Source: Ruminococcus bromii
GTDB lineage: Bacteria > Bacillota > Clostridia > Oscillospirales > Ruminococcaceae
Length of the DNA stretch: 64,000 bases
Direction: 5' to 3'
Assembly (NCBI GenBank): GCA_963590855.1
Contig: CAVAQT010000001.1
Coordinates: 66,364 to 130,363 of the forward strand
The translations under genes and the position numbers were made by a program. The notes beneath the pieces are model-generated. The model saw only the letters and a program-made list of their open reading frames with translations, had not been told where the DNA came from and did no database searches. Shown here one piece after another: positions 1,270 to 35,240 of the stretch (position 1 is the stretch's first letter; each line of letters opens with the position of its first letter).

Positions 1270-2733
1270 TTATGCGGAAAGTGCATCAATTGCCTTGCGG
1301 ATACGGTTCAGCGTGTCCTCCTTGCCCAGGATCGCACACAGTTCTACGCCACCGCCCGGTGTAAACTGCTTGCCGGAAACCGCCGTACGCAGCGGCCACA
1401 GCATCCAGCCATTCTTTACGCCCAGATCTGCGATCTTTGCAAACAGCGCTTCGTGAATGTGATCCACATCCCACTCGCTGACGCCCTCCAGTACCGGCAG
1501 GGTTTCTTTCAGTGCTTCCAGCGCAGTCTCCGGCGTGGTTTTCATCTTCTTGTGACGGTACATTTCCAGATCATATTCCGGCATTGCGTCAATGAAGTCC
1601 ACCTGCTCCGGAATATCCGAGAATACTTCGGTACGGTTCTGCAAAACGCTGCACAGCAGTGCCATGTCGATATCAGTGCGCTTTACGGTCTGACGGATAT
1701 ATGGTTCAGCATCCTTGGCGAACTCTGCCGGATCCATCTTGTGCACATATGCGCCGTTGATGGCACGGAGCTTCTTGTCGTCGAAGATCGCCGGCGCTTT
1801 ACTGATGCCGCTGATCTCGAATGCCTTTTTCAGCTCATCCATGGTGAAGATTTCCTGCTCGTTGTACTCTCCGGAGGGTGCCCATCCCAGCAGTGCAATA
1901 AAGTTGATAACTGCTTCCGGCAGATAGCCCTTTGCCATGAGATCCTGGAACGATGCATCACCGTTGCGCTTGGAAAGCTTATGGGTCTTGTCCTTCATAA
2001 CCGGTGCACAGTGTACATAGACCGGCACATCCCAGCCGAATGCCTGATACAGCAGGTTATACTTCGGCGCAGAGGACAGATACTCGTTGCCGCGTACCAC
2101 ATGGGTGATGCCCATCAGATGGTCGTCTACCACATTGGCAAAGTTATAGGTGGGCATGCCGTCTGTCTTGATGAGGATCTGGTCATCCAGGGTGCTGTTC
2201 TCTACTGTGACATCGCCGTAGATCTCATCGTGGAATGTCGTTGTACCATCCAGCGGCATCTTCTGGCGGATGACATAGGGAACGCCGGCATCCAGCTTCT
2301 CCTGGATCTCCTCCGGAGACAGATCGCGGCAGTGGCGGTCATACATGGGGGCAATGTGGGATGCCTCCTGGATCTTCCGCACCTCTTCCAGACGCTCCTT
2401 GTCGCAGAAGCAATAATAAGCATGTCCGGTCTTTACCAGTTCTTCTGCATAGGACTTGAACATGCCCATGCGCTCAGACTGTACATACGGGCCGACCGGG
2501 CCGCCGATATCCGGGCCCTCGTCCCAGTTCAGACCGGCAATCTTCAGGGTATCATAGATCACATCCACTGCGCCTTCTACATAGCGCTCCTGGTCGGTGT
2601 CCTCGATCCGGAGGATAAAATCGCCGTCCTGCTTCTTGGCGATCAGATAGGCAAACAGTGCAGTACGCAGGTTGCCGATATGCATATAACCCGTCGGACT
2701 GGGTGCAAATCTTGTTCTTACTCGCTTGTACAT
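1270..2733 (-). CDS. gltX: glutamate--tRNA ligase
   Basis: 487 aa with class I aaRS HIGH-type motif ([12 protein letters not shown]) and KMSKS-type motif (KLSKRNG). Confidence 0.93.
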
Positions 2734-2776
2734 CGCTTGTACTTCCTTTCGTATATGAAATCGCCTATATTGGCTC

Positions 2777-3700
2777 TCATTGATTTTGTTTCAGCCATTC
2801 CCGGCACTGCGCCTGATCCTGTGTGATCTGGCGATAGAGGCTGTCCACATCCGGGAACTGCCGCTCTTCCCGCAGGAAATGCAGCAGTTCTACCCGGCAG
2901 GGCTGTTCATAGAGATCGCCGGAAAAGTCCAGGAGAAACGTCTCTGCCGCCGGCGACTGGTTCGCCGCAACGGTGGGCTTTACGCCCACATCAGTCACAG
3001 AGTCAAAGCTGCCCTGGGGCGTATGCGTCCGTGAAACATAGACGCCGTACCGCGGCACCAGCTGTCCCGGTGCAAAGGGAATGTTGATGGTGGGGACTGC
3101 CTTGGTGCGCCCCAGAGCCGCTCCATGAACGACTCTGCCGCTGATACAGTACGGCGCGCCCAGAAGCCGGGCAGCCTGTTCTGGCATACCCTCGCGAACA
3201 GCACTGCGGATGGCAGTAGACGAGATCTTCTCGCCGCCGCACCGCACGGGTTCTACCTGGTGGACGCCAAAGCCGAACCGCTGTCCAAACTGCCGGAGGC
3301 TGTCGATGTCCCACGCCGCCTTTGCGCCGAAGCGGAAATCACCGCCGCAGAACACCTCTTTTGCCCGGAGCAGCTCCACTAAGATCCGGCGGCAGAATGC
3401 TTCGCCGTCCAGGGCGCAAAGCTCTGAAAACGCCGGGCAATAGACGCCGTGAATGCCGCAGTCCAGCATCAGCGCGGTTTTCTGGGCATCTGTGTATAAA
3501 TAAGTCAGCGGCATGCCCTGCTTCACCGGGACAGAGTCCGCGGCAAAGGTGAATGCACACGCCATCAGTCCCCGTTCCGCGGCACATTGCGCCGCCGCAC
3601 GCAGCACGGCACGGTGTCCCAGATGCACACCGTCAAAAAAGCCCAGCGCCACAGCACTGTCCTGTGTCAGCGGTGCAGTGATGTGCTTCAGTTCTTCCAA
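2777..3700 (-). CDS. ribF: bifunctional riboflavin kinase / FMN adenylyltransferase
   Basis: 307 aa with N-terminal [10 protein letters not shown] nucleotidyltransferase motif and a C-terminal riboflavin-kinase part. Follows truB as in Firmicutes infB operons. Confidence 0.9.
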
Positions 3701-15101: not shown

Positions 15102-15989
15102 TTATCGTTCCTGCTCCAATTTTGCCAACACCTGTGGCAGAAATGTGAGCAAGTCCCGTGGGAGCATCGCCTGCTGAGAAAGTGCCGCAGCGGCATGATC
15201 TCCGGCGAGTCCGTGGAGATAGACTCCGGCACAGGCCGCCTCCCAGGAGGGAATCCCCTGGGTTGCAAAGGCAGCGATCAGCCCGGCAAGCACATCACCG
15301 CTTCCACCGCGGCTCATGCCCGGATTTCCCGTGGGATTCTGCGCCAGACAGCTTCCCTGCGCCACCAGTGTTCCTGCGCCTTTCAGCGCCAGTGTCACCG
15401 GATACGCCGCTGCAAACTGTGCCGCCGTTTCCACACGGTTTTCCTGTATCTGCGGAATGGTCTGCCCAATGAGACGTGCCATTTCGCCGGGATGTGGTGT
15501 CAGAATCCAGTCTGTCCCCGTCCGTCTGCTTAACTCTATGCAGGAGACTGCACAGTTTAGACCATCTGCATCCAAAACCACCGGACACACCGCAGTTTCC
15601 AGCACCCAGTGCACCAGATGCTTTGTCTCCTCTGTTACACCCAGACCGCAGCCAAGCAGCACGCCGTTGGCGCGGCGGAGATGCGCCAGAAGCAATTCCC
15701 GGTTGTGGGAACTGCTAGTCAGAAAGCCGTTTTCGTCTGTTTCCAGCGAAAGCCACATCGCCTCTGGCGCAGCTGCGGCAAGACGCATGGGGTTTTCCGG
15801 CGCAGTTGCCACTGTAATCAGTCCGGCACCGCCGCGCAGTGCCGCCTGGGTGGAAAGCAGGCAGGCACCGGGCATGTTCCGGCTCCCGGTAATGCACAAA
15901 AGCCGCCCGAAATCCCCTTTCTGGGCATCGGTTTTCCGTTTGGGTATCATCCGGCAGATTTCCTGCCAGGTCAGTTGATGCAGCTTCAT
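15102..15989 (-). CDS. nnrD: ADP-dependent NAD(P)H-hydrate dehydratase (YjeF C-terminal type)
   Basis: Start trimmed to ATG 15989 (AAAGGAG upstream). KGDFGRLLCITGS and GSGDVLAGLIAAF motifs. No epimerase domain. Confidence 0.85.
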   Translation of the reverse strand: MKLHQLTWQEICRMIPKRKTDAQKGDFGRLLCITGSRNMPGACLLSTQAALRGGAGLITVATAPENPMRLAAAAPEAMWLSLETDENGFLTSSSHNRELLLAHLRRANGVLLGCGLGVTEETKHLVHWVLETAVCPVVLDADGLNCAVSCIELSRRTGTDWILTPHPGEMARLIGQTIPQIQENRVETAAQFAAAYPVTLALKGAGTLVAQGSCLAQNPTGNPGMSRGGSGDVLAGLIAAFATQGIPSWEAACAGVYLHGLAGDHAAAALSQQAMLPRDLLTFLPQVLAKLEQER

Positions 15990-16038
15990 GAAATGCTCCT
16001 TTCGCAGCGTGTCACGATCCGGCATTATCTCCGCCGGA

Positions 16039-16067
16039 TTGACAAAAGGTTTTCTGTGTGTTATGAT
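16039..16067 (+). promoter_or_regulatory. near-consensus extended -10 promoter for the 28-codon peptide gene
   Basis: TTGACA (16039-16044), 17-nt spacer, TGt-TATGAT (16059-16067). Confidence 0.65.
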
Positions 16068-16105
16068 AGCTTGTCGGCTTCTTCCGTCAGGGAGGAGGTG
16101 ATAAT

Positions 16106-16192
16106 TTGCTATACTATATCATTACCGCAGGTATCTCCGTTGGAGTAGACATTGTGTTATATAAAGTCTACAAATGGCTGAATGGAGAGTGA
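16106..16192 (+). CDS. 28-aa hydrophobic peptide (candidate type I toxin-like membrane peptide)
   Basis: SD AGGAGGTGA ends 7 nt before TTG 16106. Frame reads (M)LYYIITAGISVGVDIVLYKVYKWLNGE then TGA. Own promoter and terminator. Too short for the ORF track. Confidence 0.5.
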   Translation: MLYYIITAGISVGVDIVLYKVYKWLNGE

Positions 16193-16213
16193 GCCGACAA
16201 CAGCCTACATATT

Positions 16214-16276
16214 TTCGCCTTATTTTTATAAATAAGGCGAAAGCCCCCGGAGCTGCAACTCTGGGGGCTTTCTGTT
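16214..16276 (+). terminator. compound terminator: AU-rich hairpin plus conserved hairpin H1
   Basis: TTCGCCTTATTT-ttat-AAATAAGGCGAA (16214-16241), then AAAGCCCCCGGAG-ctgcaa-CTCTGGGGGCTTT (16240-16271), then TTTCTGTT. Confidence 0.65.
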
Positions 16277-16304
16277 GGTAATAATTTGCTACTATATCAT
16301 TTAC
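16236..16304 (-). ncRNA. candidate sRNA B (antitoxin-like), 5' seed complementary to the peptide SD/start region
   Basis: Predicted TSS is about 7 nt after the 16311-16316 -10 box. Nucleotides 16301-16277 are antisense to a near-copy of 16097-16123. It ends at hairpin H1 read on the minus strand. RNA ends are approximate. Confidence 0.45.
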
Positions 16305-16310
16305 AAGATT

Positions 16311-16339
16311 ATTGTATCACAAATAGAACACTTTGTCAA
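16311..16339 (-). promoter_or_regulatory. consensus promoter for candidate sRNA B
   Basis: Minus strand reads TTGACA (16339-16334), 17 nt, TGa-TACAAT (16316-16311). Confidence 0.6.
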
Positions 16340-16361
16340 GCATTCAAAGAATACTTTTTAT

Positions 16362-16442
16362 AGATAAAACAAAAGCCTCCGGAGCTGCAACTCTGGAGGC
16401 TTTCTTTTTTGGTGATCACTTGTAATTATATTATTTCAATGT
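16362..16442 (-). ncRNA. candidate sRNA C (diverged duplicate of sRNA B)
   Basis: Predicted TSS near 16442. Seed 16435-16411 is a degenerate copy of the SD/start region. Hairpin H2 (16403-16372) is followed on the minus strand by TTTTGTTTTAT. Confidence 0.45.
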
Positions 16443-16448
16443 GCCTTT

Positions 16449-16477
16449 ATTATAGCATAAGCTGCGACAATTGTCAA
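16449..16477 (-). promoter_or_regulatory. consensus promoter for candidate sRNA C
   Basis: Minus strand reads TTGACA (16477-16472), 17 nt, TGc-TATAAT (16454-16449). Confidence 0.6.
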
Positions 16478-16506
16478 ATATACGGAAATATTTTTTGCAG
16501 CACCGC

Positions 16507-16923
16507 CTAAAAATCGCACACGACCTGCACCGCCAAATTACTGGGGTCAGATGTTCCGTCTACTCTGTAGACCTCTAACGCCAATTTCAAATCTTCCAGC
16601 ATTTGTGATCTTGTATTTCCCGGTATGTATCTCAAAGGATTCTCCCATGAGGTTTGGAAACTCCAGATTCGCGTATTCGGCAGCCGGTTTTCCTTTTTCA
16701 GTGGCAGGATCATCTCTTGATCTTTCCAGTGAAAAAAGAACAACTCCTCATTCGGATAATCCCGATGCACGCCGATTGCAAACAAAAACACATCTTTTCC
16801 TGCATCTATGATCCACTCCCTCGGCTTGAGAAATCCTAAAGTGGGAGATAACGGATCGGGGATTTGCTTCGCCGCAAACTGTTCCCACTGTTCTGCTGTC
16901 AATGCTTCAATTTCAAACGCCAT
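16507..16923 (-). CDS. hypothetical protein (138 aa), no family recognised
   Basis: Start trimmed to ATG 16923 behind AGGAGGAG (MAFEIEALTAEQWEQF...). Soluble, Trp/Phe-rich. No terminator before the sRNA C promoter. Confidence 0.6.
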   Translation of the reverse strand: MAFEIEALTAEQWEQFAAKQIPDPLSPTLGFLKPREWIIDAGKDVFLFAIGVHRDYPNEELFFFHWKDQEMILPLKKENRLPNTRIWSFQTSWENPLRYIPGNTRSQMLEDLKLALEVYRVDGTSDPSNLAVQVVCDF

Positions 16924-17033
16924 GCCGCTCCTCCTGATACACAATTTTCAACCATTTCATGATACCACACATTTCACGAAAAGTCAATTTTCCCAGCATG
17001 CCTTTCTGCCTTTCCAATTTACAATATATTTAC

Positions 17034-21702: not shown

Positions 21703-21731
21703 TTGAAATTTTTTTAGAAGTATGGTATAAT
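21703..21731 (+). promoter_or_regulatory. promoter with extended -10
   Basis: TTGAAA-17 nt-TGg-TATAAT, about 165 nt upstream of ATG 21902. Confidence 0.55.
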
Positions 21732-35211: not shown

Positions 35212-35240
35212 TTGACAAGGAAATCGCGATGTGCTATAAT
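35212..35240 (+). promoter_or_regulatory. consensus promoter of the rubrerythrin gene
   Basis: TTGACA-17 nt-TATAAT with TGc extension. Confidence 0.65.

Follow-up and report, generated by a model that had tools for sequence, protein, structure and literature searches.

A probable chromosomal type I toxin-antitoxin module of par design in Ruminococcus bromii

Introduction

Toxin-antitoxin (TA) systems of type I have been studied in depth in Enterococcus, Staphylococcus, Bacillus, E. coli and C. difficile. The system closest to the locus described here is par of pAD1, whose homologues keep convergent promoters and a shared bidirectional intrinsic terminator; its direct repeats, DRa and DRb, are transcribed in opposite directions and give rise to a second complementary region, which sequesters the start site, and an intramolecular stem-loop hides the Shine-Dalgarno (SD) sequence (PMC7472228). 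A PXXXG(C) motif in the hydrophobic domain is essential for the toxicity of Fst and Lpt (PMC7472228), and a U-turn (YUNR) motif in the terminator loop of the toxin RNA, which serves the first kissing contact, is not found in all par homologues (Weaver 2020, PMC7472228) and is therefore not strictly defining. par is the one family in which RNAs that overlap at their 3' ends in a shared bidirectional terminator also pair over the start site through a repeat-derived 5' sequence. Here we analyzed the spacer at positions 16026-16506 of a 64,000-nucleotide (nt) stretch of Ruminococcus bromii DNA (contig CAVAQT010000001.1; the whole stretch is called the window), in which a candidate gene for a 28-codon membrane peptide is faced by two putative small RNA (sRNA) genes, sRNA1 and sRNA2.

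Toxins of the Ldr/Fst superfamily share a signature consisting of a predicted transmembrane helix, a highly conserved Trp and a following charged cluster, and Fst-like open reading frames (ORFs) have already been reported in Clostridiales (Fozo et al. 2010, PMC2887945). A first reading of the window from its letters alone (hereafter the sequence-only reading) had proposed an unannotated type I TA-like module, or more generally a membrane peptide under the control of sRNAs. We consider it probable that the locus is a chromosomal type I TA module of par (Fst/RNA II) design and, to judge from sequence, the window module is one member of a large par-like family of gut and rumen Clostridia with more than 100 loci.

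Results

A predicted toxin gene and a convergent antisense RNA

The spacer comprises 481 nt with 38% GC, compared to 55% for the 64-kb window, and is flanked on both sides by minus-strand genes. The three near-consensus extended -10 promoters on which the sequence-only reading was built are present at the coordinates given in Table 1, with scores of 11/12, 11/12 and 12/12. Promoters of at least 11/12 plus TG occurred at a mean of 0.001 in 2000 dinucleotide shuffles of the spacer, none of which contained three, and the whole window has only nine of them. Downstream of the plus-strand promoter, the 28-codon hydrophobic ORF was found at 16106 behind a strong SD, and its coding conservation extends over more than 100 alleles. 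The distance of 7 nt that had been given between the SD and the TTG start codon is correct for AGGAGG (16093-16098), and the longer string AGGAGGTGA ends 4 nt before the TTG. Folding of the leader alone gives -16.6 kcal/mol, and in the predicted minimum free energy (MFE) structure CUUCUUCC pairs with GGGAGGAG of the SD region, which would sequester the SD.

Both of the stacked hairpins reported after the ORF were recovered (16213-16242 and 16239-16272). The second one sits between the convergent promoters and is followed by the tail TTTCTGTT on the plus strand, provided that the stem is taken as GCCCCC...GGGGGC, and by UUUCGCCUUAUUUAU on the minus strand. The bipartite repeat of the SD/start region is also as described: the first block (16097-16111 versus 16277-16291) spans 15 nt with one G/A difference that becomes a G-U pair in the RNA duplex, and past a 2-nt bulge the second block (16112-16123 versus 16290-16301) is identical.

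In the predicted sRNA1, the complement of this repeat forms the 5' end, and that of the terminator hairpin comes next. With its first 40 nt, sRNA1 is predicted to pair with the start region of the mRNA at -31.6 kcal/mol (z = -6.2), a value that none of 500 shuffles reached; of 64 start regions compared, those of the three alleles of the window's own type (A-type) are its best targets. RNAcofold of sRNA1 with the mRNA reports only the trivial 3' antisense duplex, because the 5' and 3' contacts together form a pseudoknot-like, non-nested topology.

Seeds and start regions co-vary across a family of loci

The leader CTTCTTCCGTCAGGRAGGAGG was searched for in 185,579 species genomes, which gave 67 loci. 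About 60 of them are true, and these lie nearly all in Ruminococcus or other Oscillospiraceae; the hosts include R. flavefaciens, Ruminococcoides intestinale, Porcipelethomonas and R. callidus ATCC 27760. A few matches in Proteobacteria were discarded as chance, the ORF being missing there. All 65 non-redundant units have an ORF of 26-33 codons whose start codon lies 7-10 nt past the SD. In 64 of the 65, a convergent promoter scores at least 10/12 (usually TTGACA-17-TATAAT), its -10 box ending 83-141 nt beyond the stop codon, and these 64 units start with ATG (27), TTG (19), GTG (14) or CTG (4). Most units also have an upstream promoter with the -10 box ending 10-14 nt ahead of the leader.

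The peptides follow the consensus MxYIxSFxISVxAxVxxYYIxKWLDRK, in which K23 and W24 are at least 90% conserved; W24 is usually followed by [LI]-D-R-K, and some members have longer KSDK tails. Codon position 2 is the least variable (0.21, half of the 0.41 and 0.43 at positions 1 and 3), as is expected of a translated hydrophobic helix.

Pairing was analyzed between the first 40 nt of each predicted sRNA and the start region of every unit. Among the units of the leader scan, cognate duplexes have a mean of -35.0 kcal/mol versus -15.6 (sd 4.4) for non-cognate ones; the cognate start region ranks first in 58/64 units and within the top two in 62/64. Maintenance of seed-target complementarity across relatives, the check that had been set in advance, is thus seen in the large majority of units. 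The duplexes have a median span from -9 to +23 around the start codon, which is fully paired in 54 of 60 units. Since pairing is specific to the cognate partner across very divergent alleles, seed and target co-vary. Together with the near-universal convergent promoter, this co-variation supports the proposal of an unannotated, type I TA-like module in which an sRNA controls a membrane peptide.

In line with this, a metagenome scan that was independent of the leader and used a codon-level pattern for Y-x-I-C-K-W-x-D-[RS]-K found at least 120 loci. In this peptide-based sample, a convergent promoter was detected in 58/70 units, and cognate duplexes average -34.6 kcal/mol compared to -17.1 kcal/mol for non-cognate ones. 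The leader of 21-28 nt was dropped as a family invariant: units of the leader scan were all found via the leader, so that its invariance among them proves nothing, and the Ruminococcus leader occurs in only 4 of the 122 metagenome matches listed. Other metagenome leaders again place a pyrimidine stretch opposite the SD, e.g., CCACCCC...GGGGGUG. Anti-SD and SD types correspond: among 29 leader classes, which are phylogenetically non-independent, CCCC lies upstream in 10/17 GGGGG leaders and in 0/12 others (Fisher p = 0.0012).

One further element is confined to part of the family. GCCGAC after the stop codon, which could pair with the 5'-terminal GUCGGC, is found in 13/64 units, all from the peptide subgroup of the window, versus 3/212 control windows; a general, family-wide closing helix between the 5' and 3' ends was rejected for this reason, and the helix is not predicted in the MFE fold of the toxin mRNA.

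Nine of ten family peptides searched are missing from a collection of 15 billion proteins. A peptide-motif pattern requiring [DE]-I gave no match in viral contigs. Two IMG/VR contigs (L007 1000-1300 and L008 150-440) contain a family member, MLYYMISLFISVGVE[PL]ILYKLYKWL[SN]RK, with its own co-varying sRNA unit; in L007 it is accompanied by a 315-codon ORF (1553-2500, minus strand) and by what resembles, by sequence, a terminase fragment (2436-3140, minus strand). Some copies of the family appear to travel on mobile elements, as far as such contigs indicate. Two toxin units lie within 300-1500 nt of each other in the genomes L015, L018, L020 and L023 and in the metagenomes L154 and L164, and at least three units are distributed over different contigs in several metagenome-assembled genomes (RGIG4212, S12M_St_23, UBA2900 and RGIG4831). 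Such a tandem, multi-copy habit is typical of type I TA loci.

Allele swaps and remnants at the orthologous site

Relatives of the locus were collected as homologues of the flanking dehydratase together with their contigs. The toxin promoter is kept in L001, L003, L057 and L066. Relatives L001-L005, with 96% and 89% dehydratase identity, have the same site, promoter and leader and a peptide that is only 52% identical, (CTG)YYLISLLVSVTVEIISYNLYKWVNR. The repeat of this B allele is altered in step, reading GGTGTCTAACGCTGTATTACTTAATATCTCTT on the toxin side and GCGTGTCTAACAGCACTACAAAATATCTCTT on the sRNA side, and this facing unit has its own promoter, TTGACA-17-TGaTATACT. In the B allele (L001 2800-2900, minus strand; also L003-L005 and L051), no in-frame ATG, GTG or TTG follows the SD, and the only candidate start is a CTG located 9 nt past GGAGG.

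Downstream of the B allele, L001-L005 carry the window-type toxin gene as a remnant truncated at its 5' end, a hybrid hairpin (in L001 with CCCCC in the left arm and GGAGG in the right arm) and the sRNA2 unit of the window; L003 carries yet another type of sRNA unit at this place. At 75% identity (L006), the module is absent. The allele swaps, the remnants and the absence in L006 therefore indicate that the site is a variable slot occupied by tandem modules in varied states of decay.

The toxin of R. callidus ATCC 27760 (L066 4584-5030) is the same as that of the window (16039-16477) except for one residue of the peptide, and the functional parts of the two loci match almost base for base. The sRNA units are in reverse order, with a toxin 3' remnant between them, so that the non-cognate unit overlaps the toxin 3' end and the cognate one is distal. 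This difference looks like the product of recombination between the near-identical terminator hairpins. On the complete R. callidus chromosome, the leader scan detected only one toxin with the canonical leader. A-type toxin genes are intact in the two genomes that retain the cognate, sRNA1-type unit and damaged in both genomes that have only the non-cognate unit, by a 2-codon deletion in L057 and by the 5' truncation in L001. As an anecdotal observation on two cases, this would fit a model in which only the cognate RNA restrains the toxin.

sRNA2 as an apparent orphan antitoxin

Both sRNAs had been credited with seeds against the SD/start region, and sRNA2 with being a duplicate of the antitoxin gene. 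The first claim is borne out for sRNA1 and is not firm for sRNA2, which pairs with the start region of the resident mRNA at -14.2 kcal/mol (z = -2.6), a value exceeded by some shuffles. The second does not stand: with such weak complementarity to the resident mRNA, sRNA2 is not a working duplicate, and only the proximal sRNA1 appears to be a convincing antitoxin. The hairpin of sRNA2 is 82% complementary to the mRNA terminator (cofold ddG -21.7).

The two hairpin units share 87% identity (16223-16276 versus 16355-16408), and their differences include a compensatory change from C-G to U-A. The sRNA2 unit starts within what is the upstream hairpin at the 3' end of a toxin gene, and toxin 3' remnants are found at the equivalent place in L001, L003 and L066; therefore, the unit would be the antitoxin gene of a neighboring module that has lost its toxin. 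sRNA2 thus looks like the orphan antitoxin of a decayed tandem module and not like a simple duplicate of sRNA1. Among the 64 family start regions, no cognate toxin for sRNA2 stood out (best -20.8 kcal/mol), and a start-region pattern of the sRNA2 type had no match in viral or metagenome contigs. The unit is retained with intact promoter hexamers in four genomes, L001, L057 and L066 being those among the relatives. It may represent debris, a back-up that acts through contact with the terminator loop, or a protection against incoming modules.

Features of the locus and its surroundings

Table 1. Coordinates of the predicted features of the module in the window.
Feature	Position	Strand	Remark
Toxin-mRNA promoter, TTGACA-17-TGtTATGAT	16039-16067	+	11/12, with TG
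Predicted toxin mRNA (RNA I equivalent), ~200 nt	16074-16276	+	Ends inferred from -10 position and terminator
5' leader hairpin: anti-SD CUUCUUCC 16078-16085, loop GUCA, SD-containing GGGAGGAGG 16090-16098	16078-16098	+	Predicted fold
Start-region copy of bipartite direct repeat (DRa/DRb equivalent)	16097-16123	+	3' part of SD, TTG, codons 2-6
28-codon ORF, TTG start, (M)LYYIITAGISVGVDIVLYKVYKWLNGE	16106-16192	+	Hydrophobic helix, then KW and short polar tail
GCCGAC directly 3' of stop codon, complementary to 5'-terminal GUCGGC 16073-16078	16193-16198	+	Possible 5'-3' closing helix
Perfect 13-bp hairpin upstream of terminator, arms 16213-16225/16230-16242	16213-16242		Complementarity and fold
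Hairpin 16239-16255/16256-16272, 17 nt, 88% complementary, GC-rich	16239-16272		Complementarity and fold
Predicted shared bidirectional terminator: hairpin 16239-16272 and plus-strand U-run	16239-16276		Toxin mRNA and sRNA1 overlap here
Predicted sRNA1 (RNA II equivalent, putative cognate antitoxin), ~77 nt	16228-16304	-	5' seed = complement of 16277-16301
sRNA1 promoter, TTGACA-17-TGaTACAAT	16311-16339 (reads 16339-16311)	-	11/12, with TG
Second copy of 3' unit: half of upstream hairpin and terminator hairpin 16372-16404	16355-16408		Apparent remnant of second module, toxin gene gone
Predicted sRNA2 (orphan RNA II-like gene), ~81 nt	16362-16442	-	Degenerate seed = complement of 16409-16435
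sRNA2 promoter, TTGACA-17-TGcTATAAT	16449-16477 (reads 16477-16449)	-	12/12, with TG

The module is followed on one side by an NAD(P)H-hydrate dehydratase gene (15102-15989/16025, minus strand), homologues of which carry Pfam Carb_kinase. A weak candidate promoter of this gene (CTGACG-16-TATCAT, 9/12, 16063-16090; gene start 15989/16025, minus strand) overlaps the toxin promoter and leader, and it is a matter of speculation that dehydratase transcription could partly come from read-through of the sRNA promoters across the toxin gene. On the other side, the module is adjoined by a 145-codon ORF (16507-16944, minus strand) without a Pfam match. At its position, a gene of 138 residues is called in the 96% relative L001 and none in the 89% relative L003; the ORF is a second variable element at the site of the module.

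No second copy of the module or of the peptide was found within the window. Its six remaining promoters of at least 11/12 plus TG lie at 21703(+), 35212(+), 37740(+), 37643(-), 51524(-) and 56067(-). Those at 35212 and 37740 were rejected as further modules, as they are followed by ORFs of ordinary length that are rubrerythrin-like and GIY-YIG-like by sequence.

Comparison with annotated protein and RNA families

The window peptide gave no match to plasmids by tblastn and none to Pfam and NCBIfam models, even at E <= 10. Nowhere in window 1-64000 is the gathering score of an Rfam family reached, and Rfam models of type I antitoxins (e.g., the Fst antitoxin model) gave no match at E <= 10 in 15500-17000. 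Literature searches on Ruminococcus type I TA systems and on the CKWLD motif returned nothing relevant. With respect to Fst itself, positive controls scored 34.7 bits (pAD1 Fst) and 58.3 bits (S. aureus PepA1) on the NCBIfam model; in hhalign, the family reached 37% probability against pAD1 Fst and 55% against PepA1. A profile search of the PDB with the family gave only transmembrane noise (TNFR16 helix, E about 1).

A closer match came from RF02442 (SpF66_sRNA), which aligns full-length with the window toxin mRNA at 27.2 bits, under the gathering score of 42, and full-length and colinear with 9/12 family loci at 24.7-35.7 bits, all below 42. The RF02442 consensus contains an SD, an ATG and a 32-codon ORF reading MSLILELVLTIIADVIAGIILYFVCKWLDGKE and ending in VCKWLDGKE. 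On the NCBIfam Fst model, this peptide stays under the cut-off with 18.9 bits, and hhalign relates it to the family alignment with a probability of 97.1% (E = 5.4e-11, 24 columns, 42% identity). By this profile comparison, the window peptide appears clearly related to the RF02442 peptide. The remark of the sequence-only reading that the peptide was not recognized as a member of any named toxin family thus holds in so far as no curated toxin model matches, and has to be amended by the Ldr/Fst signature and the kinship to RF02442.

Discussion

By analogy with par, transcription of the module, the order of its RNA contacts, the translational block and the toxicity of the peptide can be projected onto the sequence elements, their conservation and the co-variation of seed and target that we observed. 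A strong promoter would produce an mRNA of ~200 nt whose leader CUUCUUCC folds onto GGGAGGAG and hides the SD; a weak TTG would then open the ORF for the 28-codon, single-helix membrane peptide. From the opposite strand, an equally strong promoter would produce the ~77-nt sRNA1. This RNA would share the terminator hairpin with the mRNA and hence be perfectly complementary to the mRNA 3' end, and its first ~28 nt would be transcribed across the direct repeat of the toxin start region. sRNA1 could thereby form two helices, split by a 2-nt bulge, with the SD (its 3' part), the start codon and codons 2-6, and this pairing would keep the mRNA untranslated; upon loss of sRNA1, the peptide would be made and the membrane damaged. 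sRNA2, probably derived from a tandem neighbor with a deleted toxin, would still match the terminator hairpin of the mRNA and pair weakly with its start region.

Several observations weigh against this reading. On the RNA side, a simple terminator scan missed the terminator of the toxin mRNA and flagged only the hairpin of the second unit (16372-16403), the U-run of sRNA1 itself is interrupted after the hairpin (UUUCGCCUUAUUUAU), and the terminator loop CUGCAA lacks a YUNR U-turn motif. The control for SD sequestration is weak, with 4.34 of 5 nt paired in real leaders and 3.63 after shuffling of the upstream part. Moreover, gene conversion could in principle keep the direct repeats alike without selection for pairing. 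On the peptide side, PXXXG is not found in the family alignment, where the equivalent positions read S/T-x-x-x-G/S; the window peptide has S11-V-G-V-D15 there, i.e., an Asp within the helix, and its weakly charged tail KWLNGE offers only a short NGE. Of the Fst family models Pfam PF13955 and NCBIfam NF033608, the latter matches 4/59 relatives with a best E of 8.9e-5, and the two relatives with listed scores reach 13.9 and 15.5 bits at a cut-off of 26. We regard par-like design and membership in the Fst peptide family as separate questions.

These peptide data would also suit a non-toxic small membrane protein, such as a regulatory or accessory subunit of a membrane complex, whose level is tuned by the antisense RNA. 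Toxicity of the peptide is a prediction, the curated Fst models failed and PXXXG is missing, and the module lies in a core-gene neighborhood, between nnrD-like and pheT genes. Against these points stands a regulatory apparatus as in par, typical of silenced genes, with weak starts (ATG in only 27/64), a hidden SD and an antisense promoter of consensus strength. Furthermore, close relatives differ in whether they carry the locus and in which allele they have, tandem arrays and several copies per genome occur, some copies lie on contigs of the viral collection, and genomes without the cognate sRNA have a damaged A-type toxin gene. Presence/absence, allele swaps, arrays and damaged toxins are the behavior of TA loci rather than of housekeeping small proteins, and we therefore regard a non-toxic protein as unlikely.

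The remnants could also mean that the window holds a non-functional relic of a tandem type I TA array, decaying with nothing under selection in this genome; sRNA2 lacks a toxin partner, L001, L003 and L066 contain hybrid hairpins as well as remnants of toxin 3' ends, and the relative at 75% identity has no module at all. However, the window shows no damage in the toxin ORF, its leader, the two promoters or the sRNA1 seed, the functional parts are close to a base-for-base match to R. callidus ATCC 27760, and the sRNA1 seed retains its -31.6 kcal/mol, which makes a relic very improbable. Hardly any credence is left for a chance arrangement, in which the hairpins terminate the minus-strand genes on either side and the promoters and the short ORF are coincidences of an AT-rich spacer. 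The spacer is indeed AT-rich, and the upstream 145-codon gene might use the hairpin at 16372-16404 as its terminator as well; yet the three promoters, compared to an expectation of 0.001, and the recurrence of the arrangement at more than 100 independent loci with co-varying seeds already refute this explanation.

A par-type module therefore remains our preferred reading, and it can be taken one step further. The locus might be one site of a fast-turnover specificity system that extends across gut Clostridia, in which seeds and targets co-diversify into orthogonal classes, modules are swapped at fixed sites and orphan antitoxins are retained on purpose; we offer this as a conjecture that we ourselves hold to be rather improbable. 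If it were true, orphan antitoxins such as sRNA2 could confer anti-addiction immunity when phages or conjugative elements bring in related toxin modules. Alternatively, the two contact sites of par would be split between two RNAs, as the arrangement in R. callidus ATCC 27760 might suggest.

Type I TA systems are nearly invisible in the dominant fiber-degrading Clostridia of gut and rumen; the family, although common in gut Clostridia, escapes gene callers, and no curated protein or RNA model detects it. The more than 100 natural toxin/antitoxin pairs with co-varying seeds represent a data set on the evolution and orthogonality of RNA antitoxin specificity. For annotation of Ruminococcus and relatives, they suggest a recipe that combines the leader or the KWLD motif with a convergent promoter.

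In comparison with known systems, the family satisfies the signature of the Ldr/Fst superfamily with its helix, W24 and KWLDRK, the tail NGE of the window peptide being barely charged. Ldr/Rdl itself is regulated like hok/sok, by an antisense RNA at the 5' end and a leader ORF, unlike the window locus. The C. difficile type I toxins (NCBIfam NF047374) share a host in the Clostridia, and 12/59 family members are weakly similar to them in the transmembrane segment only (best E = 0.01; 13-16 bits versus a 60-bit cut-off); their model has 51 positions, compared to 26-33 residues in the family peptides. The sequence-only reading had cited txpA/RatA and bsrG/SR4 of B. subtilis and the trans-pairing systems of E. 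coli separately as comparators. The convergent arrangement with overlapping 3' ends is indeed shared with txpA/RatA and bsrG/SR4, and the closest system is par. In the B. subtilis pairs, it is the 3' overlap that does the functional pairing and extends into or near the ORF, and there is no repeat-derived 5' seed that covers SD and start codon; the TxpA and BsrG toxins, of 38-59 amino acids, are unrelated to the window peptide.

SprA1/SprA1AS of S. aureus, which encodes PepA1 of the Fst family, combines a 3' overlap with functional pairing outside of it at the start, as predicted for the window locus. In an alignment by eye on the Trp, P10/G14/W23 of PepA1 lie opposite S10/G-or-S14/W23 of the family, so that Pro is replaced by Ser/Thr. 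SpF66 of Streptococcus shares the CKWLD motif with the family in its peptide; the leaders differ, and Rfam lists it as an sRNA without toxin annotation. We infer that SpF66 may be a streptococcal Fst-like type I toxin mRNA of the kind that Fozo et al. 2010 tested in S. pneumoniae.

The window locus differs from par (Fst/RNA II, Enterococcus faecalis pAD1, with chromosomal homologues such as par_EF0409) in that it has no PXXXG, no U-turn in the terminator loop, a host from an anaerobic lineage of gut Clostridia (Ruminococcus) and an extra orphan antitoxin gene. Like par, it has convergent promoters, a candidate shared terminator that would provide 3' complementarity, direct repeats through which the antitoxin 5' end is predicted to pair across the toxin start, and a predicted 5' stem-loop over the SD; the toxin of par is likewise ~30 residues long, with one hydrophobic helix and a polar tail, and the antitoxin lies outside the ORF in both. 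The mechanism is an already known one; the novelty lies in the family of peptides and RNAs, in the range of its hosts and in the fact that it has not been annotated.

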